Shown piece by piece: positions 5,972-32,000 of a stretch of 32,000 nucleotides of DNA (positions are counted from its first letter, which is position 1; each line of letters begins with the position of its first letter). Origin of the DNA: Nostoc punctiforme PCC 73102 (lineage in GTDB: Bacteria > Cyanobacteriota > Cyanobacteriia > Cyanobacteriales > Nostocaceae); NCBI RefSeq assembly GCF_000020025.1, contig NC_010628.1:1530001-1562000 (forward strand). The letters are read 5' to 3'. The translations under genes and the position numbers were made by a program. The notes under the pieces were generated by a model that ran no database searches, had not been told where the DNA came from, and saw only the letters and a list, made by a program, of their open reading frames with translations.

Positions 5972-5996
5972 TTCTCACTCCTTAAGATAATAATAA

Positions 5997-7351: not shown

Positions 7352-7417
7352 AAAAAATCTTCGAGTCGGAAGAGAGTAGTGTCTATAAGAATCTGATTCG
7401 ATTCCCAGCTTTTAAAA

Positions 7418-10447: not shown

Positions 10448-10746
10448 ATTCTTCTATAGTTAAATCCCTGATATACTATAGTTAAGACAAATTAAGAAAA
10501 TGAATTAATGAGTTAAAATTTGTTGATTCAAGCCAAGCCAAGCCTGGTAAATTCATTTATGGTTGATAATCACACGACTCTACATTAGTAGTTGGTCAAA
10601 GTTGTTGCCTAGGGAAAAAGTAAGGAACGAGAAATTTTATCATTTAACCGTTTCCCAGTCGAAACCCAGTAACTTTGGGTTGGTGAACCATTACTTAGCT
10701 ATGGCGCAGGCTACATCTCTTTACTTGTTAAATGTACACAAATTTT

Positions 10747-13108: not shown

Positions 13109-13305
13109 ATGTTGAAATCAAGATTAGTTATTAATTAACAACTTAACAATCACAACTCTCGGAACGAAGTAATTAAGCTTATGCCTATTTCCATACTCCC
13201 TAAAAAGTTGAGTACAGCACGGCATAAATCCAACTAAACTAGGCAAAGTTCTGTCACAGTTTAATATTAACCAGCTTCTGCTACAAGTTATGGTAATAAA
13301 AAATT

Positions 13306-14157: not shown

Positions 14158-14209
14158 GTGAAACTTTGGTAAAAGTCGATTTACAGCAATTTTCATTTAG
14201 ACTAAAACT

Positions 14210-14296
14210 GGGAATTGGGAATTGGGCATTAGTTATATTTCCTCTGCTTCCCCTGCCTCCCCTGCTCCCTACTCCCTACTCCCTTCCCCCTGCCTC
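14210..14296. repeat. STRR-like short tandem repeats between the convergent regulator and AAA ATPase genes
   Basis: GGGAATT GGGAATT GGG at 14210-14226. Then a C-rich array, CTGCTTCCC CTGCCTCCC CTGCTCCCT ACTCCCT ACTCCCT TCCCCCT, at 14241-14296. The apparent + strand ORF 14121-14306 is just this repeat read as P/L-rich text. Confidence 0.75.
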
Positions 14297-15497: not shown

Positions 15498-15980
15498 ATT
15501 TGTTTAGTTATGCAGCGTTAATAGAGTTATTTTGTGTTAAATATGAGATTTTAAAATTTTTCTTGTAATATCGAGTACTTGCATACAAATGGTAATTTTA
15601 TTTTCACCGTGCTGTACTGGCTAGGAAGTTTTTTTAATCTAACTCATTACTTATGTAGTATACTATACTACACAAGAACTACCTGCGTCAATTTTTTTGA
15701 CAAAGCAATTAGCTCTTAATGTCCCTCCGCCATTCATCTATCTCTACACTTCTGACTAATATCATGTCCGAAAGCACATAATCCCACTTTTGGCTGATGC
15801 CAAAGTTTCTCTCCCTGATAGCAAGGTGAGGTTCCGAATATTACCGATGAAGAAGGCAGTTATGCTGTGTTGCTGAGGCTTAAACCTCAGCTATTGCAAA
15901 TTTGTGTAGTATCTATTCAAGCTATAGGACTCATATTTGATTTTTGACAAAACACCGTACAACTCAAAAAGCCTTCTTTC

Positions 15981-16015
15981 CTATTGCCTCTTGCCTCTTG
16001 CCTATTGCCTATTGC
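15981..16015. repeat. STRR-like heptamer array (CTMTTGC, 5 copies)
   Basis: CTATTGC CTCTTGC CTCTTGC CTATTGC CTATTGC, about 40 nt downstream of the argJ-fragment stop. Confidence 0.8.
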
Positions 16016-16056
16016 CTAACTGTCTACACACACAATTTCACGTCTCTTCTTGTTAA

Positions 16057-16219
16057 TCAAGTTGAGTATTTGCCATTAATTTCTATATAACCCTCTGAAA
16101 GATCGCAACCCCATACAGTTGCAGAAGCTTCGCCAATATTGAGGCTAACATGAATATCTACTTTGTCTTTGGACATAATTTGCCGCAATTGTTCCAGATT
16201 TTCATTAGTTAAACTACTA
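16057..16219 (-). pseudogene. argJ: argJ paralogue, C-terminal fragment cut off by the IS630 insertion
   Basis: Manual minus-strand translation gives ...SSLTNENLEQLRQIMSKDKVDIHVSLNIGEASATVWGCDLSEGYIEINGKYST*. This is the conserved ArgJ C-terminus (ATVWGCDLS..Y..IN..Y.T). Not in the ORF track. Confidence 0.8.
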
Positions 16220-16285
16220 TAGCAATCCGGAATCATTTGTGAGAAAATACTGAAGTGAGTTTAAAGTAATCTTTGCGACATATAT

Positions 16286-17322
16286 TTGGATATAGCGATG
16301 TGGATACAATCATTAGAAGATTTTATCAAACATAGCCAGGATAAACGTGAAATTATACGAGCAATGGCAGTCAAGATGCTGCTGTGTGGATATAAACACA
16401 AGGAGATAATGCCAATTTTGGGTGTTTCGTCAGGCTTTATAAGTACATGGAAAAAAGCATTTTTTCAAAACGGAGTTGAGGGTTTAAAGTTAGCATATAA
16501 AGGAAGCAAAGGATTTTTGGATACACAACAACATAAGGCTGTGATTGAATGGTTGCAAACGAAGGAGCAATGGACTTTTAATGAGTTGGAGTACCAGCTT
16601 GTATCTAAGTATGGAGTGATATTTGAGTCTAAACGAAGTTACTATGATTTGTTTAATGAAGCACGTATTAGTTGGAAAAAAGCTCAAGCTAATAATCCAA
16701 AGCATGACCCGGAATTAGTCGCCTCAAAAAAAAAGAAATTTGTGAATTGTTGGAGACGAGACGAGCCGAAATTGAGTCGGGAGAGCTAGTTGTCTTCATG
16801 ATTGATGAATGCCACTTACTCTGGGGAGATATAATAGGATATATCTGGGGTAAAATGAGCGAGCGCATTTCAATTCCAGTTGTCAATGCTCGTGATAAAC
16901 AGACATACTTCGGTGCGTTAGACTATAAAACGAAAGAATTTCTCACCCATACTGCCAATAAAGGGAACTCGGAAAACACAATTGCTTTTTTGGAGTATCT
17001 CCGCTCACAACGTCCAGGTGCAAAACTTTTAATCATTTGGGATGGCGCTAGTTATCATCGCTCGCAACAGATCAAAGATTATTTAGACTCTTTGAATACT
17101 AACTTAGACAAAGAAGAATGGTTGATAACTTGTGAAAGATTTGCCCCGAATGCACCTCAACAAAATCCTGTAGAAGATATTTGGTTGCAAGGGAAAAGAC
17201 TGATTCGAGAGTTTTATTTTTTTTGTCATTCCTTCTCTATTGTCAAGGCTTTTTTTGAGTTATCACTTAATTGTCAAATTTTTAACTTTCCTAAGCTCCA
17301 TGAATATGGTGTTTTCTCATGA
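16286..17322 (+). CDS. IS630-family transposase, orfA (HTH) and orfB (DDE) joined by a -1 programmed frameshift
   Basis: orfA 16286-16789 is an HTH/winged-helix-like N-terminus. orfB is open from 16708 to 17322 and carries the DDE triad contexts FMIDECH, IIWDGASYH and QQNPVEDIW. The two frames overlap by 82 nt around an A9G run. Confidence 0.85.
16729..16735 (+). other. A_AAA_AAG -1 ribosomal frameshift heptamer of the transposase
   Basis: In the orfA frame the codons are TCA AAA AAA AAG AAA. The heptamer A AAA AAG at 16729-16735 is the classic X_XXY_YYZ slippery motif. A shift to -1 reads ...KKK EICELLETRRAEIESGELVVFMIDECH, continuous with orfB. Confidence 0.7.
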
Positions 17323-17339
17323 ACTATTTAGGATTGCTA

Positions 17340-18341
17340 TAGGATAAACTTTCACGTCATCAAAACTAATAACAACTCGTTCTGGATTGATCTGCTGTTC
17401 ATTTTCACATTTACCTATAGCCATCGCAACTCGTCCCCAATTCGGATCTGCCCCATAGACGGCGGTTTTTACTAATGGTGAATTGACAATTGCTTTAGCT
17501 ACTTTTTTCGCTTGTACATAGTTAATAGCTGAATCTACAGTCACCTCAATAATTTTGGTGGCACCTTCTGCATCTCTGGCAATTTTCAGCACCAATTCTT
17601 GTGCAACTTCTTGCAATGCGCTGGCAAAATCCGCCTCTGAAACTTCACCGGCTATTCCATTAGCTAGAATCACGGCGGAGTCACTAGTAGAAGTGTCAGT
17701 GTCTACACTCAAGCAGTTAAAGGTTTTATCTATAGTAGAGCGAAAAATAGAACGAAGGCTATTTGCAGAAATTGCCGCATCAGTAAAAAAGAAAGTTAAG
17801 AGAGTAGCCATATTAGGCTCAATCATGCCAACACCTTTGGCAATTCCTACCAGCTTGGCATTTCCTACTTGTCGTGTAGCTAGTTTTGATACTGTATCGG
17901 TGGTCATAATACCACGGGCTGCGGCATTAAAATCAGCAGGAGTCAATTTTTTGCCCAATCCTAATAAACCTGCTCGAATTTTTTCAATCGGGTAACGCCT
18001 GCCAATTACGCCTGTAGAAGCTATCACCATATTATGTGCAGCAATTCCAGTTTCAGTTGCAACTAATTGTAAAACTTCTTGGGCATCAGCAATGCCAACT
18101 GCACCATTAGCGACATTTGCATTCTTAGATATAACGACAATTCCTTGTACTTGTGAATCTTTTAAGTTGTCGCGGCTAATAGTAACACTTGGCCCGGCGA
18201 AAAGACTTTGAGTGAAGACTCCATCAGCAACACAAGGAACTTCTGATTTAATAAATACAAAATCATCAGTTGTATCGCGTATTCCTAAATTAGTAATAAA
18301 TGCGCTAAAACCTTGGGTGCAGAAGATATAGTTAATGCCAT
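17340..18341 (-). pseudogene. argJ: argJ paralogue (ornithine acetyltransferase / N-acetylglutamate synthase), N-terminal approximately 330 codons, interrupted by IS630
   Basis: The track ORF 17317-18030 (MVIASTGVIGRRYP...PNMATLLTFFFTDA... with the autoprocessing T motif) extends upstream in frame to ...GFSAFITNLGIRDTTDDFVFIKSEVPCVADGVFTQSLFAGPSVTISRDNLK... The only ATG (18341-18339; MALTISSAPKV...) is in a different frame. The 3' end reads into the IS (…VYPIAILNSS*). Confidence 0.8.
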
Positions 18342-18489
18342 TTTTCTAAATTTAATAATTTTCTTTAATTATCTCATACATCTGTAAAAATATTTATAAC
18401 ATCAGTTATTAGAGACGTATATCTATACACCTCTAATAATTGATTTGTAAAATAAAAATTATAAAATTTTAAGAAAAGCTAAAAACCTA

Positions 18490-18721
18490 TCATAAATCAG
18501 TTAGTGTAAGAGTAAATATTGTCCATCCATCACCACTTTCTACCTTAATGTTTCCTTGTAATTGTTCGACTATTTTTTACTATAGCTAAACTTAATCCAT
18601 AACCACCTTGATTCCACACGTATTGGTTGAGGTCAAGGCGTTCTCCAAAAAGCCAACTGCCAATAACAGCAATCAGTCCAAATCCCAGCCCAGTAATGAT
18701 GCTAATCCAGGATCTAGTGCT
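18490..18721 (-). pseudogene. Histidine-kinase HATPase_c C-terminal remnant with an internal frameshift
   Basis: Manual minus-strand translation gives ...TGLGFGLIAVIGSWLFGERLDLNQYVWNQGGYGLSLAIVK, matching the DxGxG...F.RF...GG.GLGLAIVK pattern. A 1-nt frame change then gives KIVEQLQGNIKVESGDGWTIFTLTLTDL*. A stop lies immediately upstream at 18722-18724, and no kinase N-terminus is present. Confidence 0.5.
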
Positions 18722-19255
18722 TCAAGGTGCGATCGCTTCAGCAACAGATTTCTAATGCAAGTATCCATTGCTAGTAGCGAAGACAAAACTATATATGCTG
18801 AAAGTAAAGTCAATATTTATATAATCCTGATTAACAAAATTTCTTAATAAGCCATAATAAACTCTCTTTTTGACCGCTTGCTTGTTGAGTTGGAATAACA
18901 ATGTTACTTCACACTAAATTAGTCTATACGTAGATGGATGGTTTCATTGTTTTCCAATACTTAAATACTCAATGTATATTTATAATTTACAAATATATCC
19001 GCTATGTCTACCAAAAGGCTCTTGCTTCGCTGCCTTGTAATCTGTCAGGCTTTTCTAAGCTAGTCTTTGTGATTTTACGAAAAACAAAAAATGCAACAAA
19101 CAAATTTTTGAACTTTTTAAATACTGGATTAAAATTTATTTATTCGTTTTCTACAACACTTTTGCAAAATTTAATTGGTTGTGTCAAACTAAACCAAGGA
19201 AAGCCATAATTCACCAACAGTTTAATGTTATGCTTTCCATAAAATAATAAAAGAA

Positions 19256-20911
19256 TTATTCAAAAACATTGCTTTGCTCCTTTCCAATATTTAAATATTC
19301 AGTTTTCACTTGGCCGTATTCCAGCTTGACAATCCGATCTGCCAGGTAAAAATATTGGTCATCGTGACTAATAACTAGTACAGTTTTTCCTCTCTTCTTT
19401 AGCTCTACCAGAAGTTGAGTATAGAAAATTTCCTTGAATACAGGATCTTGATCTGATGCCCACTCATCAAACATATAAATGGGACGATCTTCTAAATAAG
19501 CAGTAACTAGAGCGAGACGTTTGCGCTGTCCTTGAGAAAGGTCCGTGGTAGAAAGTACTCCATTATTGACCTTAACTTTATGGTCTAATTGCAATTCAAT
19601 AAGGTACTTTCGAGTCTGAATATCCAGATCGCCACTATCCAAACCCAGGAAGCGATCAAAAAGATAAAAATCGGAAAATACTACAGAAAATTGCTGTCTA
19701 TACCACTCTAAATTATGATTATCAATGAGCTGATCGTCTAGATAAATATTTCCTGTTTCAGGAATGTAAAGCCCACTAATTAACTTAGCGAGGGTAGACT
19801 TACCACTACCGTTACCTCCTACAATAAAAACAAGTTCTCCTGGATGAAATTTTAATTTAATAGGCCCAAGGATAAAGTTGCTTTCTTCCCGTTCTTGATA
19901 ATAAGCATGGGTTATATTTACCAGTTCTAAGCAGTTCCAATATTGATCTGATGCCAGTGAAACATTATCACAAATTTCGTTTGAATAACTTGCTAATGAT
20001 AGACCCAGAGACTCCACTTTTTTTAAAGCTACTAAGGCTTTAGTTATGCTAGGCATCATACTCATAATATACTCTAGAGGTGATATCAAATAGATAATAG
20101 TTAGGGCATAAGCAGATAGAATTGCAGGTGGAATTTTATTGATAGTAGGGATGATGAATAAAAGTAACCCAATAGCAACAAAAAATAGAACTTGCCCCCA
20201 ACTAGCAGCCGCAGCAAAGATACTCATACCCACAACATTATGACGGCGGAATGATGAAGCAGTGGTATGGAGTTCTTCAGAGAGAAATGCTTGCCGTCGT
20301 CGGCGATGTAGTTTGAGTTCTTTTGTGCCTTGAATGACGCTACGGAAATGCTTAAATAATCTATCTTCTTGCTCACGAGCCAATTTTAAAAAAGACATGG
20401 CTTTCATCATTGGTAGTGAATAGCTGAATATTCCCAGGAACATAAAGCTAATACCTATGAGGAAAACAATTTTAGATAACCAACTCAGATAAATCAGACA
20501 GGCAATCACGATGGCAATATTAATGCACACAAAAGGGACAGTAATAACTGTGTTAGAGATTGTTTGAATATCCTCAGTGAGAACAGCTAAAAGTCCATGA
20601 GCACCTATTTGTTCTAAGTGACGTAAGGGCGAGGCAAGAATACTGCGGGTTAAAAGTACCCGCAAATTGAGAATTGCTTTTTGTGAAAGTTGTATCAATA
20701 AAACTTGAGAAACGAAATTAGCAATTAACCGCAGTAAACAAAGACCGACAAAACTCCAAATTAGTATAGTTTTTGATGGCTGATTTTGACTCAATGTCGT
20801 ATTAATTAGGGCAATTAGACCAGCAGCAGTGCCGCCGCTGAAAATACCAGCTAAAATTGCAAAACAGAGCTGAAGAGAAGAAGTACGCAATAGAAGACGG
20901 ATCAGGTTCAT
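19256..20911 (-). CDS. Cyclic-peptide/siderophore-type ABC exporter (fused permease and ATPase)
   Basis: 551 aa. Six-TM N-terminal half. Walker A GGNGSGKST, signature LSQGQRKRLA, Walker B PIYMFDEWASDQD. Size and layout match the SyrD/PvdE-like cyclic peptide transporter family. Confidence 0.85.
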   Translation of the reverse strand: MNLIRLLLRTSSLQLCFAILAGIFSGGTAAGLIALINTTLSQNQPSKTILIWSFVGLCLLRLIANFVSQVLLIQLSQKAILNLRVLLTRSILASPLRHLEQIGAHGLLAVLTEDIQTISNTVITVPFVCINIAIVIACLIYLSWLSKIVFLIGISFMFLGIFSYSLPMMKAMSFLKLAREQEDRLFKHFRSVIQGTKELKLHRRRRQAFLSEELHTTASSFRRHNVVGMSIFAAAASWGQVLFFVAIGLLLFIIPTINKIPPAILSAYALTIIYLISPLEYIMSMMPSITKALVALKKVESLGLSLASYSNEICDNVSLASDQYWNCLELVNITHAYYQEREESNFILGPIKLKFHPGELVFIVGGNGSGKSTLAKLISGLYIPETGNIYLDDQLIDNHNLEWYRQQFSVVFSDFYLFDRFLGLDSGDLDIQTRKYLIELQLDHKVKVNNGVLSTTDLSQGQRKRLALVTAYLEDRPIYMFDEWASDQDPVFKEIFYTQLLVELKKRGKTVLVISHDDQYFYLADRIVKLEYGQVKTEYLNIGKEQSNVFE

Positions 20912-21008
20912 AAGTAATTAACAACCCACAGCATTCGTTCTGACGCGAAGAGTTTTCTTAAAGAGTAATTAAGCAGATATGTACAACTCACAGACTTTCG
21001 TTATTTGC

Positions 21009-22298
21009 CTACCTATTAACTACCTGTGCAGCACCTTTTACCTCCAGTTTTTTCGATGCTCCAACATGCTGATAAAGTTTTTCTTCAAATTTTTCCATAC
21101 ACGCCGACCAATCAAATTTTTGTATGTAGAGGCGAGCCTGTCGAGACATTTCTTCTTTTAGAGCCGGATTTTCTAGAATCGCAATCACCTTCATAGCGAA
21201 ATCTTTTGGGTTGTTAGGTTCAGCTAGGAAGCCGTTGCGACCAGAGGAAGAGGATATCTGCTCTGAAGTTGAAGGCGCAAGGACCGCAACTACAGGGGTT
21301 CCAGAAGCCAGCGCTTCGTTAGTTGTGGTGCAAAAGTTTTCGGTGACGGAGGCATTGACAAATACATCTGCTCGCGCAAACCAGCCCAAAAGTTCTGTAC
21401 CGTGAGACTCACCCCAAACCGTAATACCAGATTCAAACTTTTTGGCACGCCGACGGATCTCTTTATCCTGGGGACCACTACCAACAATCACTAAATGGAC
21501 ATCAGGAATTTTGGCAGCAATGAGCACAAATGCATCTAGGAGTTGCTTGACGTTCTTTTCTGCACTAATGCGTCCGACAAACAACAGAGTGGGTCGTTGA
21601 TCGCCAGGAATAGGGTCATAACAAATATTTCGGGGATGAAATTTTTCGCAATCAATTCCTTGATAGGGAAGATATTCTAGACGTTGGGCTGCCAGCAATT
21701 TGTACTTGGTGAGTTGTTCTTGGGAAGAAAAGTAATTAACATCATAAGCCTCACTCAATTGCTTAATTAAAATGGGAATGATCGGACGAATAAATCTAAA
21801 AGCCCACTCTCCTATGTAATATCGAATATAAGCAACTATATCGGTATGGAATATAGATATTATTGGTGTGCCTGTTCGCTTTGTGTATTCAGTGCCAATA
21901 GGGCGACCATAACCTTGCAAAAAAAGTGAATAGTAACCGATCATTCCTGGCGCTTCTTCAACCACCACAATGTCAGGCTGAAAATTTAATAACAGCTTGG
22001 TATCACTCCAATATCGATAGTGCAATGGTTCGGGAAGAGACTTGTAGAATATCATTGGTTTGCTTGGGTAAGCATAAGAAGAAAAGTTGGAGAAAGACTG
22101 AACTTCCTCCAGCCTTAACATGGGGCGATCGCGAACTTCTTTGGGGTACAGATAATTGACTCCAGGATGGATCAGAAAGACTTCATGTCCCTGCTGTAGC
22201 AACCAGCGAACACGCTGGTGTACTCCCATAGAAACCCCCGACATAAACGGAGCATATAATGCTGTAAAAATCGCAATACGAAGAGGTTGTTTATTCAT
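21009..22298 (-). CDS. Glycosyltransferase family 4 (retaining GT-B)
   Basis: 429 aa. N-terminal IAIFTALYAPFMSGVSMGVHQRVRWLLQQGHEV. C-terminal domain with LLFVGRISAEKN and the E-x7-E motif ENFCTTTNEALASGTPVV. Confidence 0.85.
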   Translation of the reverse strand: MNKQPLRIAIFTALYAPFMSGVSMGVHQRVRWLLQQGHEVFLIHPGVNYLYPKEVRDRPMLRLEEVQSFSNFSSYAYPSKPMIFYKSLPEPLHYRYWSDTKLLLNFQPDIVVVEEAPGMIGYYSLFLQGYGRPIGTEYTKRTGTPIISIFHTDIVAYIRYYIGEWAFRFIRPIIPILIKQLSEAYDVNYFSSQEQLTKYKLLAAQRLEYLPYQGIDCEKFHPRNICYDPIPGDQRPTLLFVGRISAEKNVKQLLDAFVLIAAKIPDVHLVIVGSGPQDKEIRRRAKKFESGITVWGESHGTELLGWFARADVFVNASVTENFCTTTNEALASGTPVVAVLAPSTSEQISSSSGRNGFLAEPNNPKDFAMKVIAILENPALKEEMSRQARLYIQKFDWSACMEKFEEKLYQHVGASKKLEVKGAAQVVNR

Positions 22299-22329: not shown

Positions 22330-22722
22330 TTAACACTTGGGATGAAAACTTTCTAAATCAACTACGGTGATTAAATTATCTTTTGGATGTCTGTTTTTCT
22401 CAGCTATTCCTGTATGCGCTGCATCCCCTCGAAAGATGCACAAAGGTTTTGACACAGCATTCTTAGCAGCTTTAGCTATATTGACAGTGCTCCTAACATT
22501 TACCTCATGAAAATGGTCAATTGACCCACCTTCTTTAGCTAGTTCAGCCGTATGTGTAACTACATCTACTGCCTGACAAGCCATTTGGGCAGTAGCTGGA
22601 TTAGTAACACTACCAACAATCACCTCAACACCGAGTTTTTGCGCTTTTTTAGCTTTATCCGAGAAATTTTGTAGTCCACGGACTTTCATTCCCTTTGCTA
22701 TAGCTAACTCAGCAAAACGCAA
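22330..22722 (-). pseudogene. NAD-dependent epimerase/dehydratase (extended SDR) fragment, probably decayed
   Basis: 130 aa from a TTG start. It resembles only the first third of an SDR (KGMKVRGL...LGVEVIVGSVTNP...VDVVTHTAEL...FHEVNVRSTVNIAKAAK). The upstream in-frame sequence reads IIIIEINGFIS where the GxxGxxG motif should be. The catalytic YxxxK region is missing. Confidence 0.55.
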
Positions 22723-23188: not shown

Positions 23189-25066
23189 TTAGACTCTACA
23201 TTCTTCTACCTTCGATCTCAGAGAAGCAAAATGTTTTCCACCTAATTCAATTTGCCCTTCTGCACACCCAGTTTTCAATCTTTCGACTAAATAATCCAAA
23301 TCATGAGCTATAAAATTTGTGCCATGATCTGGTTCTACTAAACTAACTAAAGATATATTTCTAGCTTGTTGTTCGACCAAGCTAGAAATACCCAGAAAGT
23401 TAAATACACCAGATTCATAGGTTCCACAAGGTACCGAAGGATTATTTACTCCAACACAGTATTCATTTGGTTTAAACCAATCAAATGCTGGGTAGCCGTG
23501 AAAATGAACAATTGGCGCACCATTTTTAATTAATTCTGGTGTATACAAAGCCGCAGAAAGACTAATCGCAAGCATGACATAAATATCATAAGAAGGTTTC
23601 ATATCTGCTAATTCCGAACGAATCACTTTAGGAAGTTGGAGATATAGCTTTTCTTTCAACCCAATTCTGATAATATCGTCAGCGATATTCAAGTCTGTTT
23701 TATTTGACCCTGAACGAGAACTTACAAGCCAAATATCGGGGATTTGTCTAAATACATATTTTTCTAATATTTTGATTTTGACATAGCGTCTACCATTTTC
23801 ATTTTGACGAAGTTCGTTACTACTAAATCCCTTAACAGGTAGTAGACTTTCCCACTCTTTTTTAGTTACTTCTACATCTCCAAAATATTGTGGAGGTTCA
23901 GCATAAGCAACAAAGCCATAAGAGACACCTGTTCTACCATTTATGATGACGCTGACAATATCTCTATGGGATTTTCTTTTAATCACTTCATTCAATTTAA
24001 AACCAGGAGGGAATAAACCTGTTGATGCCAATTCCTGACCCAATTTCACTAATTTTGCAGCATAGCTAGATTCTTGAGGATTATACTGTCCTAGCTCAAA
24101 TCGGCTCAGTAAAAGTGGGGCAATCGGCACAAAAACTTTAGGTATTAGCGATTTTAAGACAAACCTTTCTATCTCGCTCCTGGAAAAAATAGAGTCTGAA
24201 AGATTCATATTTAGTATAGAAATTTTATTAGATGATACTCCAATAACTACTTCGGAAAATGTTCTAATTAAAGTGTTTATTCCAATATTTATTTTTTGTT
24301 TATATGGAATAGCAGGGTTAATAAAATCATGGTCTATGTCAGTAATTACAATCACTTGCGTTTTGCTAGGGTTGTCAACATATTTAGCTGCATGATCTTC
24401 AGCCCAACTGCTTAATCTAGCTATTTTTATCACAGGTATTTTTCGCTCGTTTAAGATAAATTGAGAATAAATTTTGTAGAGGATTTCTGCTACGAATATA
24501 CCCAATTTTCTCAAAAAGGAAGGAGGGATTTCTACATCAATAATTGCGTTAACTTCTGACTTAACTCCCTTGAATTTAAAGTTTCTCTTTTTGTTAATTA
24601 CCGGGATTATTAGATCATATTTGAATTCTGCGATCGCTTCATCCCAAGATAAAACTTTGACACCATAATCTCTCAGTTTAACTTCCAACTCTTGGCGAAA
24701 TTTCCGAATTTCTTGATTATTGTAGCTATTAGGCAAAGGTTTAAATGTAACTATCAACTTCTGAGCCATAGCTTTAGTATCAATAATTGGCGACTTATAT
24801 TCTACAGTTGATTGCTCTGAAAAACCTCCAATTAAACGACCAATAGTTTGTAAATTTAGTCCTTGACTTAAAGGGACTGAATTTAAGTCGGAAGCTACAT
24901 CCATCTCATGCAGAAATGCCACAATATCTGCTTTGTAAGCAGCTATTTTTGCTTGCATATCTAATGTAATTAATCCCTTTGGTGAGCGAATCCTTAACTT
25001 GTCGTTATCAACCCATAAATGAACACCTTGTTGAGTAAGGTTTGCTACAAGCTCTGATGCGTTCAT
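23189..25066 (-). CDS. Protein with a TubC-type N-terminal docking domain fused to an unrecognised domain of about 560 aa
   Basis: 625 aa. Residues 1-55 (MNASELVANLTQQGVHLWVDNDKLRIRSPKGLITLDMQAKIAAYKADIVAFLHE) fit the beta-beta-alpha-alpha NRPS/PKS docking-domain pattern L..L...GV.LW.EGD.LR..APKG.LT.EL...L...K.EI..FL. The remainder has no A, C, KS, MT, TE or other motif I can identify. Confidence 0.7.
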   Translation of the reverse strand: MNASELVANLTQQGVHLWVDNDKLRIRSPKGLITLDMQAKIAAYKADIVAFLHEMDVASDLNSVPLSQGLNLQTIGRLIGGFSEQSTVEYKSPIIDTKAMAQKLIVTFKPLPNSYNNQEIRKFRQELEVKLRDYGVKVLSWDEAIAEFKYDLIIPVINKKRNFKFKGVKSEVNAIIDVEIPPSFLRKLGIFVAEILYKIYSQFILNERKIPVIKIARLSSWAEDHAAKYVDNPSKTQVIVITDIDHDFINPAIPYKQKINIGINTLIRTFSEVVIGVSSNKISILNMNLSDSIFSRSEIERFVLKSLIPKVFVPIAPLLLSRFELGQYNPQESSYAAKLVKLGQELASTGLFPPGFKLNEVIKRKSHRDIVSVIINGRTGVSYGFVAYAEPPQYFGDVEVTKKEWESLLPVKGFSSNELRQNENGRRYVKIKILEKYVFRQIPDIWLVSSRSGSNKTDLNIADDIIRIGLKEKLYLQLPKVIRSELADMKPSYDIYVMLAISLSAALYTPELIKNGAPIVHFHGYPAFDWFKPNEYCVGVNNPSVPCGTYESGVFNFLGISSLVEQQARNISLVSLVEPDHGTNFIAHDLDYLVERLKTGCAEGQIELGGKHFASLRSKVEECRV

Positions 25067-25131: not shown

Positions 25132-26466
25132 CTAGTTATGCATAAAACTAGAGTCTAAATTTAAATTGCAAATGTCAAAAATATAAGACATAACATTGTT
25201 TACAAGAAGATCCATAGTACCCTGACTGATTGAAGGTTGAGAAAAAACAAAATTTAACAGCATTTTTCCTTGAAAAGTTGAGGCGTGGATAACAAAAACA
25301 CCTGCATACAAAGCGTGGGAACCAGCGAAACTGATTTCTTCTAGTTCAAATTCACCGTAATATTTGGGTATATTTACTTTGCCAACATTAGAAACAGACA
25401 CTGTGGCAGCTACTTGCTTGGGATAGATAAAACAAAAATCTATGAGATGCTTGGCAATCAAAATCATTTTAAAGAGATCGCCGGATTTTTTACTAACTTC
25501 AAGTTTTTGTTTCACCTCACGGGCTAATTCCCAAAAAGACGTGTTTCTCCCTATAGTATGAAATTCCATAATAGAGGAGGCTAATACAGCCATCTGATCA
25601 TCACTGATTGCTGGTTCTAGGTGTCTCCTCAAATCAAAATATGATAGGCAGTTTACTCGTGCATTTTTGCTATTATCTTTAATTATTTTTCTCCCTATTG
25701 TAAACATCAGTACAGCACACAAAGCACTATGTACTGTTGTATTTTCTTGCCGACAATGATTTACAAATTTTTGGGTTAAGTCTTCGTCAAGTTGTCTGTG
25801 GATAATATTGCAACTACGCTTTTCAATAGATACGTACTTTTCAAAACCTAATGTTTTTGGTCGATTCCAGATTTTTTGTAACCCAAGCTGCAACAAGAAG
25901 ATAATGCTATTTATCCTACCTCTAAATCCCTTAGTCCATTTGGGCATTAGTTCTTCGATAGGTGGAAGTGGAGTTAAGCTAATAACTGGATTAATTGGTT
26001 TGCCAGATACAATTTTTTGACAACAAGTCAAGATTTCTGAGTGAAGTTGGATGGATGACAAACCATCTGCGATCGCATGGTGTATTGTTGTAATTAGGTA
26101 ACTTACATGCTGATCGCCCAAAAGATGAATAAGAACAACTCGCAGTAAACCTTTGCTACTATCAATTCCGTTGTTCATCTCTTCATCAACCACTTCTTGC
26201 CACTGCTCATTGTCTAACTTTTTGACAACGCGTAAAGCAATATTTGCTATTTCTTGACTTTGAAAGATAAGACTATTTTTATCTCCAGTAATTTTAGAAT
26301 TTAGACGAGGGTGGCGACATTGGATTACGTCTAAAGCCTGTGTCAGAGTTTCTTCGCAGATATAGCCATTGATGCGACTAATAGTTACTATGTTCCAGGT
26401 TTTAGCACGGCTATTTAAGATTTCCATAGCTTGCTCAAGGTGTCCCAGCTTTCTGTTGTAAATCAT
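25132..26466 (-). CDS. Stand-alone condensation-domain-family acyltransferase (HHxxxDG)
   Basis: 444 aa. Active-site motif TTIHHAIADGLS about 130 aa from the N-terminus. Size and layout resemble free C domains and PapA5/WS-DGAT-like enzymes. Confidence 0.8.
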   Translation of the reverse strand: MIYNRKLGHLEQAMEILNSRAKTWNIVTISRINGYICEETLTQALDVIQCRHPRLNSKITGDKNSLIFQSQEIANIALRVVKKLDNEQWQEVVDEEMNNGIDSSKGLLRVVLIHLLGDQHVSYLITTIHHAIADGLSSIQLHSEILTCCQKIVSGKPINPVISLTPLPPIEELMPKWTKGFRGRINSIIFLLQLGLQKIWNRPKTLGFEKYVSIEKRSCNIIHRQLDEDLTQKFVNHCRQENTTVHSALCAVLMFTIGRKIIKDNSKNARVNCLSYFDLRRHLEPAISDDQMAVLASSIMEFHTIGRNTSFWELAREVKQKLEVSKKSGDLFKMILIAKHLIDFCFIYPKQVAATVSVSNVGKVNIPKYYGEFELEEISFAGSHALYAGVFVIHASTFQGKMLLNFVFSQPSISQGTMDLLVNNVMSYIFDICNLNLDSSFMHN

Positions 26467-26648: not shown

Positions 26649-26954
26649 TCAAATCTCAAAAATCTCTGACTGCGAAGCTTTGGATTCTTCCGCTAAACGC
26701 TGGGATAACGTTTCAATAGTGGGGTAATGCCACAATAAAATTGGAGATAGCTCAAAACCAAACAACTTCTCGGCTTTGCTAACAAGAAACATTGCCTGGG
26801 CTGACTCTAAACCGTAGCTGTCTAAAGGTTGACTAACATCTATATCCTTGGATTCAACTCCTAGCTGCTCTGCAATATGAGATACTAACCAAGCTTGAAT
26901 TTCTTCTGCGGTATAAGACTGCTTTTTAGTTGTCTCAGGAGTAGACTGACTCAT
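26649..26954 (-). CDS. Discrete acyl/peptidyl carrier protein
   Basis: 101 aa. [70 protein letters not shown] fits the PKS-type ACP pattern. The phosphopantetheine Ser lies in GLES, a variant of GLDS. Confidence 0.85.
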
Positions 26955-27163
26955 TTACACACCTCTGAAGTGAAAGGAATAAGATATATGGCATTCCTAA
27001 ATAGGATATGAACAGGCTATAATTTTTGTTCACAGCTTAGATAGGATTGCTGTACTGGCTAAAATTTTGAAAAGTTTAAGGTAGGAGATATTAGAAAAAA
27101 GTTTTACTTTTGCTACTGCTGCATATCTCCTAAGCGCATATCGAGCTACGTGACATTTATCAA

Positions 27164-27463
27164 TTAATCAGCCACCCGAATGCGAATATCACCCTGCACT
27201 ACGCATTGACAGGCTAGGCGAACATTGGGATTATCTGGAGCCAACACATCAAGTAAAATCTGCTCTTCATCCATCACAGGAGTTAGATTTTCTATCCCAC
27301 TCACAACTTCTATAAGACAGGTTCCGCAAGCAACACAACGACAACCAAATAAAATTGAACTAGGATGTTCATCACAAATCTTAGTTAAGCGTTGGTTTGC
27401 TTCGACTTGAAGTGTTTTTTGGTCGTCTTCAAAATGAATAGATACTATCATTTTTAAACTCAC
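27164..27463 (-). CDS. Plant-type 2Fe-2S ferredoxin
   Basis: 99 aa. Cluster ligands are C41-x4-C46-x2-C49 (GCRCVACGTC) plus C84 (RLACQC), which is the canonical spacing. Confidence 0.85.
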   Translation of the reverse strand: MSLKMIVSIHFEDDQKTLQVEANQRLTKICDEHPSSILFGCRCVACGTCLIEVVSGIENLTPVMDEEQILLDVLAPDNPNVRLACQCVVQGDIRIRVAD

Positions 27464-27500
27464 TAGTGTCAGGAAAGAGGGTTAGCAGATTTAGCAACCC

Positions 27501-28799
27501 TTAGGCTACTTCAACAACTTTTTGAATTTCCTTAATTGCCAAAGCATCCTTGTAACGCTCATAGCGATTACCTAGCTTACTTGTATTTAACTCCAATCCC
27601 AATGCCTTTATCAGACGCTCTAGCTGCTGAGATTTGTATTGCCAACTCTTTTGTTCCATGTAACCAATTATATTGCGCCACTTTGAACTCACCTGTCTCC
27701 AAGAATTAACTAATTGATTTATATCCGCTTGCTTATCAGCTAATTCAGGATGGTGCAGAGACATACTTAGTGAGTTCAGCCCAACTCTAATATCAGTTAG
27801 CATGATTCCTTGCACAGTGAGGTCTAATTTCTCCAAATAAGTAGTGTAACTAGCACTAATATAGTCTTCCACAATTAGCTGCATGAAATATCGAACGAAA
27901 TCCTGAGCCTCTGGAGGAGCTACCCTATACAGTTCTACTCCTAAATCAAAAGATGTTGTGTAATGACGTGCTTCATCTGTTAAGTGGCCTTGATTCAATT
28001 CAAAAGCTAATGGTTCATAATCAAACTTTTCAGGTGAATCAAATAAATAGGCTTCGCTTTTTTTTAACTCCACGTTAGCCATGTACCGATACAGCAGAGT
28101 TAAGCTACCCAAGCCATTTTCTTGAACTTTTTCGGCGGGTAGCATCCTCATGGCATCCCCAATCATAAACCTTAAATTTCGATATGTAAAATTTTGGCCT
28201 CGTTGCTGCGTCTGTTCTACAATCTTTTTAAGAAAGCTTTTCCCCTTTTGAAGATTCAACAGAGTTTCATTTAAATCTTCATCAAAAGTAAAACGGGTAT
28301 CGAAGTTTTCAAAATCTGATTGAGGTATTGCACCAACAGAACCATAGAAAAAACCAGGCTCATCAAAGGAGCTTTGAATTCCTATTTCTCGGCAGACCAT
28401 ACTATATACGGTTCTAAAAGACCAAATATGATCCATTTCTTCATTAGTTTCCTGGTGAAGAATCATAAATTCGTCCGAGTAGGAAGCAAAAACTTTTTCA
28501 GCAATACTCATATTGGATATAAGAGACTGATATTCGCTATTGGCAACATACTTGTAGAAGTTAGCAAAAAATGTCGCAGATAAAATTGACATTTGACGAG
28601 CATTAAAAGAAAATAAATACTCACAAATAGGTATGGGTAAGGGTAGCATTCCTGGATGAGAGTAAAGTTTTTCTCCTTTAATTCCCTGCTTGCTCATAGC
28701 TATAGCAACAGTTTTTAATTCTAAAGGCTGAGTATGTGCCTGCTCGAAAAGCTTATTTTGAATCTTGGGAATTCGGTTATCAATTTTAACAGTATTCAT
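27501..28799 (-). CDS. Ferritin-like diiron-carboxylate enzyme (AurF/CylC-like superfamily; oxygenase, desaturase or halogenase)
   Basis: 432 aa, predicted helical. Two ExxH motifs about 160 aa apart (NEEMDHIW and TDEARHYT), each preceded by a candidate carboxylate-bearing helix (ANSEYQSL; ANVELKKSE). Sits 14 nt downstream of the PfaD-type gene and 37 nt upstream of the ferredoxin gene. Confidence 0.65.
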   Translation of the reverse strand: MNTVKIDNRIPKIQNKLFEQAHTQPLELKTVAIAMSKQGIKGEKLYSHPGMLPLPIPICEYLFSFNARQMSILSATFFANFYKYVANSEYQSLISNMSIAEKVFASYSDEFMILHQETNEEMDHIWSFRTVYSMVCREIGIQSSFDEPGFFYGSVGAIPQSDFENFDTRFTFDEDLNETLLNLQKGKSFLKKIVEQTQQRGQNFTYRNLRFMIGDAMRMLPAEKVQENGLGSLTLLYRYMANVELKKSEAYLFDSPEKFDYEPLAFELNQGHLTDEARHYTTSFDLGVELYRVAPPEAQDFVRYFMQLIVEDYISASYTTYLEKLDLTVQGIMLTDIRVGLNSLSMSLHHPELADKQADINQLVNSWRQVSSKWRNIIGYMEQKSWQYKSQQLERLIKALGLELNTSKLGNRYERYKDALAIKEIQKVVEVA

Positions 28800-28813: not shown

Positions 28814-30475
28814 TTAATTAAAAGTAACTGGACGATATTCGCTGTAATAAGCGGGCATTTGTAAGCCCTGAACTTTTAAACTTTGTATCCGGTATAAAAA
28901 TGCTGCTCCGGTCATAATATGGTTAGCAACATCAACTACCTGACGATTATTTGATTCAGATAAGTAAGAACCTCTAACCCAGTCATTGAAACTGCCCATA
29001 GCAGGGCCACACCAGATTTGATAATCCATTTCTCTGCCTTTTTCACCAAAGTTAGACCAACGGGATGATAATCCAAGATACCAGCGAAAAATTAAAGCCA
29101 TCTTCAGTTTGGGATTATTAACAGCCTTGGCCAATTTATCAGGATTGCGTTGAGATAAATAAGTAACTGTCTCTTGCCACACTGCATCCAAGCTCTTTTT
29201 CAAAACTTGTTTTTCTAATTTATCTCTTTCCACTAAGGGAATATCTTCAATTGAGTCATAGTTTTTGTATAGTTCAAACATTTTTTGGGCTCGTAAAGGA
29301 AAGAGAGTTCCTCTTTTGAGTACTTGGAGTTTTACCCCCATTTCAAACATATCTGCTGCCGGAGCCATCATCACATCAGCCATCTCGGCTTGAGCCAATA
29401 ATTGTTTAGTATGTTGAGAAGTTCCGGCTTCAATGCAAGACTGGTTAATCGAGCCTGTTACAACATAAGCAGCACCCATCATAAAGGCAGCTAATGCTGA
29501 TTGTGGCGTAGCAATTCCTCCTGCTACTCCGACTCTGACAGGTTTTTCATAAGAAAATTTCCTTTGAATTTCATCTCTCAATTCTAAGATGGAAGGTAAG
29601 AGACAAACTAGAGGACGATTATCTGTATGACCACCAGAATCTGCTTCGGCAGTAATATCGTCAGCTACAGGAATTTTTTCAGCTAGAGTTGCTTGTAATT
29701 CACTGATAAGACCTTGCTCAACTAATTGCTTCAAAATTTTTGTTGGAGCAGGTTGCAGAAATTTGATTGCAACTTCTCTCCGAGAAACTTTGGCTATAAT
29801 TTTATTTTTGATTTCGATTTTATTGTCCGCATTCAAACTAAGTCCAGCAGCGCGGTAGTAAACAATGTTGTCAGTCAAATCGAGGAAGGCGGAAGCTTCT
29901 ATTGTTCTCACCTGATATTTAAGATACAAATCAACAACACCGCGTTCAATAGCAGGCTCACTAGGACTGTGGAGTAAGTTAAATGCGTAAGGTCCTTCGG
30001 GTAAAGCTTGCTGAATACGCTTAATGGCTGCTTCGACCCGAGCAGGAGATAAGCCACCAGCACCAAATGAACTTAAAATTTTCTCTTTGCCAAGGGCAAT
30101 TACCAGTTCTTCAGAAGCAATCCCTTGAGCCATTGCGCCCGTGGCATAAGCGTATTTTACACCATGAAATTTGAGAAAAGTTGAATCGCCTAATTGCCGA
30201 GTTGACAGAGGTGGAGTAGATACTAATATTTCTGCCTGTCCTGTTTTTCCTTGGTTGCAAGGATATAGATAACCTTCGTTAGTTGCACCAACTTTTCCTT
30301 CAACTCTAATAATATAACAAGGCTTTTCTAAATTTAGAAGCTTAGATTTTATGCCTTTTTCGTTAAAAGATACAAAATCTAAAATACCTTGCCAAACTTG
30401 ATTTTGTTGGGAAATATAGTCTGAAATTTTTAGGTAGTTACCATTGTTATTTAGTATATTATCTGCACCAATCAT
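28814..30475 (-). CDS. PfaD-family trans-acting enoyl reductase (nitronate-monooxygenase fold)
   Basis: 553 aa. Characteristic PfaD blocks: FHGVKYAYATGAMAQGIASEELVIALGKEKILSSFGAGGL, AFNLLHSP, SGGHTDNRP, and the C-terminal extension WYLGLSSRWS. Confidence 0.85.
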   Translation of the reverse strand: MIGADNILNNNGNYLKISDYISQQNQVWQGILDFVSFNEKGIKSKLLNLEKPCYIIRVEGKVGATNEGYLYPCNQGKTGQAEILVSTPPLSTRQLGDSTFLKFHGVKYAYATGAMAQGIASEELVIALGKEKILSSFGAGGLSPARVEAAIKRIQQALPEGPYAFNLLHSPSEPAIERGVVDLYLKYQVRTIEASAFLDLTDNIVYYRAAGLSLNADNKIEIKNKIIAKVSRREVAIKFLQPAPTKILKQLVEQGLISELQATLAEKIPVADDITAEADSGGHTDNRPLVCLLPSILELRDEIQRKFSYEKPVRVGVAGGIATPQSALAAFMMGAAYVVTGSINQSCIEAGTSQHTKQLLAQAEMADVMMAPAADMFEMGVKLQVLKRGTLFPLRAQKMFELYKNYDSIEDIPLVERDKLEKQVLKKSLDAVWQETVTYLSQRNPDKLAKAVNNPKLKMALIFRWYLGLSSRWSNFGEKGREMDYQIWCGPAMGSFNDWVRGSYLSESNNRQVVDVANHIMTGAAFLYRIQSLKVQGLQMPAYYSEYRPVTFN

Positions 30476-30660: not shown

Positions 30661-32000
30661 TTATGATTCAAATAACTTTTGATAACAAGCTATTTGCAAC
30701 TGAATGATGACGCTAATTTGCTTTAGTGACTCCTGTCGTGCTTGTAAAAAGACAGCATGAGCTTTGGTCATCCTGGAAGCGTTCTCACTCAGCTTTTGAT
30801 AGTAAGGACTGTGTAAATTGAGCAAATTGGTTTCGTCAACAATGCTGGATGTTTTCAAACTAGGGGTCAAAGCGAATTGATTATTTTCCTGTTCTGTTAC
30901 CAAATTTTCGTTAATTTGTAATTTTTCTACACTTTCATTGCGTTCTTGTAACAATAACTGAGTAGGTTGGCTGCTATTTTGAAAGTTAACTTGCTCTTGG
31001 AGACTTTCTAGATTTCTAGAGGTGTTTTCAAGACTTTTGGTAGGATTAGAGAGCAAAGAAGAATTCATTTTTGGAAATTCCTTTAATTCTGATAGTTGAG
31101 ATTGCTGCTGATTAACAGTTTTGATGGGATATCTAAAAGAGATATCTTGAAGGATTTCTTGATTTTTTTTATTCAAAGATGTGTAACTAATCTTGGTATT
31201 GTCCAAGGTTATAGTTTTCACACTAGGTTGGCTTTGGTTGAAAATTTCTGGCTCTTGAGAATATAGTGGTGATAAATCCAGATCAACTCTGTGGCTGAGG
31301 AGTTTGGCTAAAGCTTTGATAATAGAAGCATGATCGTCTACACCTCTTTTATTAAGAGACACTGTGATGTGTTCTTTTGCATTAAGGGTTTTATCAATCC
31401 ATCTAGAACAGTTACTACCAGCACCTACTTCGAGGAATATTTTGAAGCCATCTTCATAGACGCGATTAATTAGCTGAGGAAAATTAAGCTGTTGACAGAG
31501 ATTTTGAGCAATATTGTGAGCAATAGAATGGCTATCAAGGTCAATGGGTTTATACTCAGCTGCGGAATAGAAAATAGTCTCTGGGATGTTTCGGCTAGGT
31601 AATGTATTTAATCTCACAAGTTCATCGTACTCAGAGCGCATTGCCTCGCAATGAATTACATGGGTGAAGGGAGCAGAAAAAGCATTACAATTTAGGCTAG
31701 CGATAACTCGCTGACAGGCTTGGATTTCACCAGCGATCGCAACTTCTTCTGTAGTGTTAATTAAAGGCAAATAGACGCGGTTTTCATATTTGATAGTTTC
31801 CTGAACGCGGGATACTGGACACATGAGAATATAATTGCGCCAAAAATCTTCGCCTTGTTGATTCTGCTCTTGAGGTAATCCCCAATACTCGCGCACAGCA
31901 TTTTTTTCACCAGATAGCCTTGTCTTCAGCAGAGATGATGAGTTAAAGCCCTCGCTACCTTCTTGAAACTGAGTCCAGACACCCTGAGCCAACATCATAC
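30661..32000 (-). CDS. C-terminal part of a PUFA-synthase/PKS-like multidomain protein: PfaB-type acyltransferase half-domain plus a Q/N/S-rich tail. The gene continues past the right edge.
   Basis: The frame is open to position 32000. The first approximately 255 aa in the window resemble the C-terminal half of an AT domain (…AIAGEIQACQRVIASL…SAPFTHVIHCEAM…FLEVGAGSNCSRWI…). The last approximately 190 aa are low complexity, ending AHAVFLQARQESLKQISVIIQLQIACYQKLFES. Confidence 0.7.
   Translation of the reverse strand, partial: MMLAQGVWTQFQEGSEGFNSSSLLKTRLSGEKNAVREYWGLPQEQNQQGEDFWRNYILMCPVSRVQETIKYENRVYLPLINTTEEVAIAGEIQACQRVIASLNCNAFSAPFTHVIHCEAMRSEYDELVRLNTLPSRNIPETIFYSAAEYKPIDLDSHSIAHNIAQNLCQQLNFPQLINRVYEDGFKIFLEVGAGSNCSRWIDKTLNAKEHITVSLNKRGVDDHASIIKALAKLLSHRVDLDLSPLYSQEPEIFNQSQPSVKTITLDNTKISYTSLNKKNQEILQDISFRYPIKTVNQQQSQLSELKEFPKMNSSLLSNPTKSLENTSRNLESLQEQVNFQNSSQPTQLLLQERNESVEKLQINENLVTEQENNQFALTPSLKTSSIVDETNLLNLHSPYYQKLSENASRMTKAHAVFLQARQESLKQISVIIQLQIACYQKLFES

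Follow-up and report, generated by a model that had tools for sequence, protein, structure and literature searches.

A predicted diiron enzyme and its adjacent ferredoxin in a Pfa-like lipid gene cluster of Nostoc punctiforme PCC 73102

What reaction could be carried out by a diiron enzyme that is encoded directly next to a ferredoxin of its own and a free-standing acyl carrier protein (ACP)? This question is raised by positions 26649-28799 of a 32,000-nucleotide (nt) stretch of the Nostoc punctiforme PCC 73102 genome (NC_010628.1), which was analysed here and is called the window throughout. An earlier note on this DNA had interpreted the region as a module of enzyme, ferredoxin and ACP and had considered it a candidate for acyl-ACP halogenation or oxygenation. 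The three open reading frames (ORFs) were confirmed at their coordinates, all of them on the minus strand:

27501..28799, minus strand: predicted ferritin-like diiron enzyme, 432 amino acids (aa), from a sister clade of the CylC-like family that is termed E-type here (AlphaFold2 model, Foldseek, PF28091 on orthologues, invariant residues)
27164..27463, minus strand: plant-type [2Fe-2S] ferredoxin, 99 aa (GTG start) or 95 aa (ATG start) (Pfam Fer2, 8.8e-9)
26649..26954, minus strand: stand-alone ACP, 101 aa (Pfam PP-binding, 2.3e-14)

We found that the adjacent [2Fe-2S] ferredoxin is the most persistent genomic partner of the diiron enzyme. The enzyme itself is homologous to the CylC halogenases in its core only; judged from the sequences, it belongs to a separate clade and is no close relative of CylC or BrtJ. 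We consider it fairly probable that enzyme and ferredoxin form a two-gene tailoring cassette which was inserted into a secondary-lipid cluster resembling Pfa/polyunsaturated fatty acid (PUFA) synthases, a cluster that is widespread in heterocystous cyanobacteria. With similar, moderate confidence we favour a ferredoxin-driven, O2-dependent functionalisation of a C-H bond in an ACP-bound long acyl chain as the overall reaction.

The diiron enzyme and its place next to the CylC family

ExxH occurs three times in the 432-aa protein (residues 19, 121 and 276). A pair of such motifs says little about a diiron site by itself, since two or more of them were present in 13% of shuffles of this protein; the extended motif H272-x-x-D-E-x-x-H279 was found in 0.045% of the shuffles. 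In 32 aligned relatives as well as in every related clade, the residues E89, E121, H124, E249, H272, D275, E276 and H279 do not vary. Both half-sites of the four-helix core, E89/E121xxH124 and E249/E276xxH279, are thereby present, as is the HxxDExxH motif with the third His and the hydrogen-bonding Asp (H272-L-T-D275-E276-A-R-H279). The AlphaFold2 model of the protein, which was built on the 32 relatives, is confident (pLDDT 92.6, pTM 0.92). A Foldseek comparison of this model with the PDB ranked AurF first (probability 1.0), followed by the R2 subunit of ribonucleotide reductase (RNR R2), R2lox, stearoyl-ACP desaturase and the methane monooxygenase hydroxylase (MMOH). AurF was also reached by sequence with a profile covering three clades (E = 0.006), and this was the sole sequence-profile match in the PDB; narrower sequence and profile searches of the PDB with the 432-aa protein gave chance matches only (COG2, colicin S4).

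Since the ligands are invariant, the model is confident and AurF is matched by structure as well as by profile, the ferritin-like diiron assignment made in the earlier note holds. The protein is predicted to have a ferritin-like diiron fold with the AurF/CylC-type ligands E89, E121, H124, H272, E276 and H279, plus E249. Results that would place it outside the ferritin-like superfamily, or in an unrelated family of known function, were looked for, and neither was obtained. The Pfam model for AurF (PF11583) did not match the 432-aa protein at E <= 0.1 in the local Pfam search, and its relatives have only faint precomputed matches to it. Two further candidates were set aside: Mod_r, the only local Pfam-A match of the protein (E 0.043), was regarded as spurious, and the NCBIfam model TIGR04061 scored 17.8 bits against a cut-off of 124.

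A kinship with the CylC/BrtJ-type halogenases had been proposed as well. We could confirm it, with the qualification that the protein belongs to a separate clade without the QExxH signature. Orthologues 85-97% identical to the window protein have precomputed matches to PF28091 ('CylC-like') at E <= 1e-5; the evidence from this model consists of these orthologue matches, the local Pfam copy being without it. A homologue search yielded 58 protein clusters, almost all of them with precomputed PF28091 and, where an organism name was given, all cyanobacterial. The closest ones come from Nostoc (FACHB-133 with 97% and LEGE 12450 with 92% identity), and the PF28091 matches are weak or faint for Gloeobacterales members. 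We define the main CylC family here as proteins 445-494 aa long with QExxH and a precomputed PF28091 match (26 sequences sampled), not by the sequences named CylC, NocO and BrtJ; one sampled main-family locus also shows the context of fatty acyl-AMP ligase (FAAL), ACP, enzyme and polyketide synthase (PKS).

The alignment between the window clade and the 26 main-family proteins is clear but restricted to the core (hhalign 98%, E 1.5e-13, 240 columns, residues 42-296, 23% identity); the N-terminal 40 and the C-terminal 135 residues of the window protein do not align to the main family. In pairwise BLASTP comparisons with the main family, the window protein reached only 1e-5 to 1e-6. An exhaustive profile search of 1.84 billion representative proteins returned only 39 relatives, and proteins with CylC hallmarks (about 452-457 aa, QExxH; termed Q-type here) were found in this search at 1.8e-12 to 4e-5, again over the core only. 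A short group of metagenomic proteins with 340-365 aa aligns with the window clade over the full length (E = 1.4e-84). In neighbour-joining trees, which are distance-based and unrooted (100 bootstraps), the window clade was supported with 96, the main CylC family with 97 and the split between them with 97-98, and the mean core identity across this split is 17%. The two groups also differ in size, with 58 clusters in the window clade and at least 742 in the main family.

Differences between the clades were found next to the predicted ligands, too. Position 120, directly before the first of the two ligand ExxH motifs, is Glu in 57 of the 58 members of the window clade, Glu in 14 and Asp in 2 proteins of the short and outlying groups, and Gln in all of the 122 main-family proteins. 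The window protein (E120-E121-M-D-H124) thus lacks the QExxH signature of the CylC family. Position 123 is Asp in the window clade and in the short and outlying groups, while the main family has Val, Ser, Tyr, Ile or Phe and AurF has Phe. At position 278, the window clade and the short and outlying groups have Arg, the main family has Phe, Leu or Tyr, and AurF has Ala. D123 and R278 set the clade apart, and from the alignment we infer that they are placed near the active site. The corresponding motifs are DESFH and HLRDETAH in AurF, EEMDH and HLTDEARH in the window protein, which combines the three-His ligand set with an acidic side chain in front of the first ExxH, as AurF does.

The residues of the halogenases have been dissected by Wang et al. 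2025 (PMC12101540), who described nine conserved residues in QExxH and HxxDExxH, each of them essential in NocO. According to this work, the Gln is conserved in CylC, in selected homologues and in 241 further homologues identified by BLAST, and it stands where AurF and other diiron oxygenases have Asp, a swap that may affect chemoselectivity. The NocO variant Q128A was inactive yet retained iron, and the assays required ferredoxin, ferredoxin reductase and NADPH (Fdx/FdR/NADPH). E252 was proposed to vacate a chloride site, and the evolution of halogenases from hydroxylases was put forward as a hypothesis in the same study. Eight of the nine residues are kept in the window protein, including the equivalents of E252 and D282; the exception is the change from Gln to Glu.

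The ferredoxin pair and its host cluster

The ferredoxin ORF has a GTG start exactly 37 nt past the stop codon of the 432-aa ORF, and the annotated start of orthologues is an ATG 12 nt downstream of it, which gives the 95-aa version. The ACP gene begins 209 nt beyond the ferredoxin gene. The gene order described in the earlier note is therefore borne out by the coordinates and by the Fer2 and PP-binding matches. The Fer2 match of the 99-aa protein exceeds the Pfam cut-off, and its ligand cysteines C41, C46, C49 and C84 (C-x4-C-x2-C-x34-C) are kept in all partner ferredoxins examined.

To follow the pair through other genomes, one genome per species was scanned, giving 32 loci on which the window proteins were placed by tblastn. 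Of the Nostocales loci, 27 have an intact diiron gene, and in each of them the ferredoxin gene adjoins it; in Amazonocrinis nigriterrae CENA67, the ferredoxin gene adjoins a remnant of the diiron gene. Outside the Nostocales, a ferredoxin is found next to the enzyme in seven of ten gene contexts and is missing from three; these flanking ferredoxin homologues are 38-52% identical. The pair occurs without PKS or ACP in Candidatus Cyanaurora, in a metagenome-assembled genome (MAG) of Gloeobacteraceae and in an uncultured MAG with two enzyme-ferredoxin pairs in tandem; its neighbourhoods in Gloeobacterales are housekeeping-like. A metagenomic locus of the short clade has the order enzyme, Fer2, AMP ligase, cytochrome P450 (P450), ACP, carbamoyltransferase and MBOAT, and in a metagenomic locus of the outlying group the genes for enzyme and Fer2 overlap. 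Two sampled main-family loci have no ferredoxin, namely Gloeothece (FAAL, ACP, enzyme, PKS) and Stanieria (enzyme, sulfotransferase, P450, DevBCA).

The tandem pairs of the uncultured MAG (GCA_964355015.1, 7957-11641) lie beside two sulfatase genes and PHO4 and PhoU-like phosphate-uptake genes. In this organism, such a context may point to a function apart from secondary metabolism.

The region around the pair contains the following further genes:

25132..26466, minus strand: PapA5-like acyltransferase of the condensation family, 444 aa (PapA_C 7e-17, Condensation 2.8e-13)
23189..25066, minus strand: 625-aa protein with an N-terminal beta-hairpin (TubC-type) docking domain and a class II aldolase-like domain (TubC_N 7e-18)
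28814..30475, minus strand: PfaD-family enoyl reductase (TIGR02814 2.7e-200; PfaD_N, NMO, FabD_helical_ins)
30661..31998, minus strand: C-terminal acyltransferase part, 445 aa, of a PfaB/HglC-like subunit with ketosynthase, chain length factor and acyltransferase (KS-CLF-AT) (TIGR02816 PfaB 3.2e-26)
21009..22298, minus strand: glycosyltransferase of family 4 (GT4) (Glycos_transf_1 2e-32)
19256..20911, minus strand: ATP-binding cassette (ABC) exporter with fused transmembrane and nucleotide-binding domains (TMD-NBD) (ABC_tran, ABC_membrane)
22330..22722, minus strand: NAD-binding epimerase/NmrA fragment, 130 aa (partial Epimerase and 3Beta_HSD matches)

From the PfaD gene, which ends 14 nt ahead of the diiron gene, to the gene for the 625-aa protein the genes are closely packed, with gaps of 14, 37, 209, 182 and 65 nt. 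The KS-CLF-AT gene runs past the window edge, as full-length orthologues have 1101-1106 aa. The 444-aa acyltransferase also matches the PapA5 subfamily of NCBIfam (1.8e-18). Among the syntenic loci, only a subset has the GT4 glycosyltransferase gene, and the ABC exporter was found in 19 of the 28 Nostocales loci with 81-98% identity. The epimerase/NmrA fragment sits between the genes for docking protein and glycosyltransferase, and its matches are confined to the N-terminal portion of the profiles; as LEGE 12450 has this fragment too, a gene remnant is probable.

The genes for the PfaB-like protein, PfaD, ferredoxin, ACP and the 625-aa protein are retained in all Nostocales loci, and an intact diiron gene and a PapA5-like gene are retained in all but the one of Amazonocrinis nigriterrae CENA67. 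In this locus (10001-10553), the best diiron tblastn segment comprises 145 residues with 79% identity, and the match spans 553 nt compared to about 1300 nt at the remaining loci. The locus lacks a PapA5-like gene and retains the genes for ferredoxin, ACP and docking protein, which looks like a natural decay of the cassette.

The host cluster also occurs on its own: Nostoc PCC 7524 and Trichormus azollae have a cluster of PfaA-like, KS-CLF, PfaD, PapA5-like, ACP and docking-protein genes that includes neither enzyme nor ferredoxin, and the family of the 625-aa docking protein comprises at least 707 clusters compared to 58 for the enzyme clade. In genomes that carry the cassette, the pair stays joined while its position relative to PapA5 and ACP shifts. 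As the pair persists without PKS and ACP and the host cluster occurs without the pair, the evolutionary unit consists of enzyme and ferredoxin, and the ACP is therefore part of the host pathway. ACP, PapA5-like acyltransferase and docking-domain protein thus belong to the host cluster. Of the module of three genes suggested by the earlier note, the ferredoxin remains as the conserved partner and the ACP lies in the same operon-like block, but ACP, PapA5 and docking protein all occur without the pair.

Two loci differ in the stretch between PapA5 and ACP. In the uncultured cyanobacterium MAG MFD01721.bin.c.4 (OY970166.1, 11877-14668), a wider gap holds a second PapA5-like acyltransferase gene, as identified by Pfam. 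Gene order and wider gap recur in the Nodularia sp. MAG LCM1.Bin15; the Pfam check for the extra acyltransferase covered the former MAG.

The cluster type itself has been described before. Eusebio et al. 2021 (PMC8406957) distinguished seven architectures of CylC-homolog clusters, one of which, 'nitronate monooxygenase-containing (n = 3)', was found only in Nostocales of the LEGE collection and has no known natural product linked to it. This class features PKSI, ferredoxin, ACP or glycosyltransferase genes, and its members are shown in their Figure S10 (Desmonostoc LEGE 12446, Nostoc LEGE 12450 and LEGE 12447). We found the LEGE 12450 contig to be syntenic with the window gene for gene, the enzyme being 92% identical. 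The order is PfaA-like protein with ketoreductase and dehydratase (KR-DH), KS-CLF-AT, PfaD, CylC-like enzyme, Fer2 and ACP, followed by PapA5-like acyltransferase, 625-aa TubC_N protein, epimerase fragment, glycosyltransferase and ABC exporter. The enzyme of LEGE 12447 is 97% identical to the window protein, and the 'nitronate monooxygenase' of the class corresponds to the PfaD-family gene. Because of the gene-for-gene synteny, the window belongs to this published orphan class, with no difference in kind. The present work is therefore a refinement and not a discovery of a cluster type, and in the literature found no product is assigned to the class.

Eusebio et al. 2021 treated the enzyme as an ordinary CylC homolog, and clade separation, the change from Gln to Glu and the cassette behaviour are not reported there. 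What is new here is the clade separation, the active-site differences, the constancy of the ferredoxin and the nature of the cassette. The earlier note had called a private ferredoxin non-standard for such an enzyme. This is true for the two sampled main-family loci, from which it is absent; however, such a ferredoxin is documented by Eusebio et al. 2021 (PMC8406957), who observed one beside the CylC homolog in Rieske-type clusters too.

Two host proteins are of interest for the fate of the acyl chain. The ACP has its phosphopantetheine serine at Ser46 in an LDSY motif and ends in the tail SQSEIFEI, which follows the pattern S(Q/E)SE(I/T)(F/L)(E/Q)(I/L) and is kept in clusters with and without the cassette. 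The N-terminus of the 625-aa protein resembles the docking domains of AerJ and TubC by sequence, and Foldseek matched it to the AerJ beta-hairpin docking (bHD) domain (TMt 0.85); the conserved ACP tail may be the ligand of this domain. The body of the 625-aa protein is class II aldolase-like (RhuA/AraD; rhamnulose-1-phosphate aldolase, E 1e-4, probability 1.0; model pLDDT 78) and contains the invariant His-rich motifs HFHGYP and EPDHG. Among heterocystous cyanobacteria the protein is 64-90% identical, and this holds also for Trichormus azollae, a symbiont with a reduced genome.

Two known cluster types were considered for the host cluster and rejected. A thioester reductase and a phosphopantetheinyl transferase (PPTase) are encoded in the canonical heterocyst-glycolipid (hgl) island, and condensation-type and docking-domain genes are absent from it; in the cassette-free relatives Nostoc PCC 7524 and Trichormus azollae, neither thioester reductase nor PPTase was found beside the cluster. 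The published cyanobacterial Pfa hybrids (Type G or hybrid clusters of PKS, nonribosomal peptide synthetase (NRPS) and Pfa) differ in architecture.

Chemistry and substrate

We agree with the earlier note that the chemistry is not readable from the sequence, and give likelihoods instead. In the mechanism we propose, the ferredoxin would pass electrons to the diferric site and reduce it, and the reduced diiron site would then activate O2. The activated cofactor could abstract a hydrogen from an unactivated carbon of the long acyl chain; the PfaA/KS-CLF-AT/PfaD synthase would build this chain, with the stand-alone ACP as its carrier. After modification, the chain might be handed on by the PapA5-like acyltransferase, by the ACP-docking 625-aa protein or by both, and the product, in this Nostoc probably glycosylated, would be exported via the ABC transporter.

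As to the outcome of this reaction, we give oxygenation (hydroxylation or desaturation) roughly an even chance; chlorination is clearly less probable, and anything else is less probable again. The lean towards oxygenation is based on the second-sphere Gln proposed in the literature to be halogenase-specific, in whose place there is an invariant Glu here, matching the Asp of AurF, and also on the two extra charged residues, D123 and R278, and the deep split between the clades. A further hint comes from the occurrence of both clades in Anabaena sp. WFMT, described below; these points are suggestive and not decisive. Tentatively, and at somewhat below even chances, the E-type clade (EExDH/DEARH, ferredoxin-paired) might be a non-halogenating lineage of the hydroxylase/desaturase type from which the Q-type CylC halogenases diverged.

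Several observations weigh against these proposals. AurF and the halogenases have the ligand set and the E249 equivalent in common, so that these do not discriminate between them, and the change from Gln to Glu is a single marker whose mechanistic role is hypothesised. Because the pairs in Gloeobacterales and elsewhere have no ACP nearby, the ancestral substrate may have been free of a carrier, and a free lipid or glycolipid might likewise be the substrate in Nostoc. In addition, no acyl-AMP ligase was found in the window or in the 10-kb flanks, upstream as far as the PfaA-like gene.

The alternative that survives best is that the enzyme is a genuine CylC-type chlorinase acting on an ACP-bound fatty acyl chain, and that the cluster makes a chlorinated lipid or glycolipid. 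We regard this as possible but rather unlikely. It would fit the coverage of the Nostoc orthologues by the Pfam CylC-like model, the inclusion of this class among the CylC-homolog clusters by Eusebio et al. 2021, the eight residues of Wang et al. 2025 kept with the E252 equivalent among them, the ACP in the operon and the fact that known halogenases require a ferredoxin-type reductant in vitro. However, the Gln found in 122 of 122 main-family proteins and essential in NocO is replaced, positions 123 and 278 provide two more second-sphere differences, and the homology is limited to a core of 17% identity. The housekeeping-like neighbourhoods of the pair in Gloeobacterales speak against a chlorinase as well, as does a Q-type homologue near the E-type gene in Anabaena sp. 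WFMT.

In this Anabaena, five genes directly downstream of the Pfa-like cluster and its cassette (14082-21295) encode a methyltransferase, a protein without Pfam match, a DarB-like ketoacyl synthase III (KAS III), an SBBP beta-propeller (possibly CylK/BrtB-like) and a Q-type CylC homologue. The gene for this homologue follows the E-type gene at a distance of about 9 kb downstream, and the protein is 46% identical to Cylst_6457. Thus both clades are present in one neighbourhood, which hints that they are not redundant; distantly related CylC homologs within one cluster have also been reported for Anabaena cylindrica PCC 7122 (Eusebio et al. 2021, PMC8406957). We also considered whether a second Q-type CylC gene is hidden in the window or in the LEGE loci, but tblastn found none there, only the downstream one in Anabaena sp. 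WFMT.

A further alternative concerns the substrate, which might be a free or membrane lipid or a released or glycosylated product instead of a carrier-bound chain; the neighbouring ACP would then be incidental to the insertion into a Pfa-like operon. For Rieske-type CylC homologs, Eusebio et al. 2021 (PMC8406957) indeed proposed that a tethered substrate may not be needed. Such a substrate would agree with the pairs that have no ACP, PKS or ligase nearby (Cyanaurora, Gloeobacteraceae, the uncultured MAG and the metagenomic outlying-group locus) and with the assignment of the ACP to the host cluster. We nevertheless think it improbable, more so than chlorination: in the short-clade locus the pair lies directly beside an AMP ligase and an ACP, in every Nostocales locus it lies amid PfaD, ACP and PapA5 and not at the cluster edge, and the characterised relatives use acyl-ACP.

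An AurF/CmlI-like N-oxygenase acting on an amine is very improbable even though AurF is the best structural and the only sequence-profile match in the PDB, the three-His ligand set and the acidic second-sphere residue are as in AurF and some relatives have faint PF11583 matches, for the window protein itself has no local Pfam AurF match at E <= 0.1, the TM-scores are only 0.37-0.62 and the cluster, whose logic is entirely of the lipid type, has no aminotransferase or arylamine-forming genes.

Other genes of the window and comparison with known systems

The remainder of the window contains genes apart from the lipid cluster. On the minus strand (908-9292), there are genes for a thiamine pyrophosphate (TPP) enzyme of 624 aa, a Glu/Leu dehydrogenase-like protein of 353 aa, two proteins without Pfam match (322 and 426 aa) and two NHL beta-propeller proteins (432 and 398 aa). 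Divergently upstream of them, a PAS histidine kinase and an AraC-type response regulator are encoded on the plus strand (11129-14157). This gene set, in the left third of the window, looks like a putative scytonemin (scy) cluster together with its two-component regulator. At 16286-18030, two overlapping IS630-like transposase ORFs (helix-turn-helix (HTH) and DDE_3; plus strand) abut a truncated ArgJ ORF of 237 aa, which covers profile positions 95-322 of 377; at the matching place in Nostoc LEGE 12450, ArgJ is intact with 387 aa.

Diiron halogenases are a recently recognised route to the chlorination of unactivated carbons, and in the PDB searches no member of the CylC-like family matched any solved family structure by sequence. 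A clade that keeps every metal ligand, has the oxygenase-type acidic residue at the single position proposed as halogenase-specific and comes with its own reductant is a natural comparison set for chlorination and hydroxylation, whichever chemistry it carries out. If the E-type clade is indeed a non-halogenating lineage, matched scaffolds differing at E/Q120, D/x123 and R/F278 would become available to probe diiron chlorination against oxygenation, and the ferredoxin of the clade could serve as cognate reductant for a poorly tractable enzyme family. The behaviour as a cassette would make the pair a small redox module that diversifies a lipid pathway conserved across heterocystous cyanobacteria.

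Compared to the halogenases CylC, NocO and BrtJ, the window enzyme shares the predicted ferritin-like four-helix core with the ligands E, ExxH and HxxDExxH including the third His, the equivalents of E252 and D282, the cyanobacterial lipid/PKS context with an ACP and a presumed need for ferredoxin-type electrons. It differs from them in having EExDH instead of QExxH and DEARH instead of DEA(F/L/Y)H, in its own adjacent ferredoxin, which the two sampled main-family loci lack, and in having no adjacent fatty acyl-AMP ligase in Nostoc. AurF, the p-aminobenzoate N-oxygenase (PDB 2jcd / 3chh), is the closest structural match. Three-His ligands are common to both, and the first ExxH is preceded by an acidic residue in each, by D135 in AurF and by E120 in the window protein. 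However, the sequence similarity in the Foldseek alignments is 8-10%, AurF is about 100 residues shorter and lacks D123 and R278, and it acts on an arylamine in another pathway context.

The soluble acyl-ACP desaturases with plant ferredoxin follow the logic proposed here, in that a [2Fe-2S] ferredoxin supplies electrons to a diiron enzyme acting on acyl-ACP. Their site contains two His and four carboxylates, whereas the window enzyme has a third His among its predicted ligands; no Pfam or PDB sequence match points to membership in this family, and the Foldseek match is weak (probability 0.54, TM about 0.3). The ferredoxin of the window has weak NCBIfam matches to domains of the YfaE, MmoC and BenC type, all of them far below the family cut-offs. 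By analogy only, the pair can be compared to YfaE and R2 and to the bacterial multicomponent monooxygenases, in which a small dedicated [2Fe-2S] ferredoxin is likewise encoded beside a ferritin-like diiron protein.

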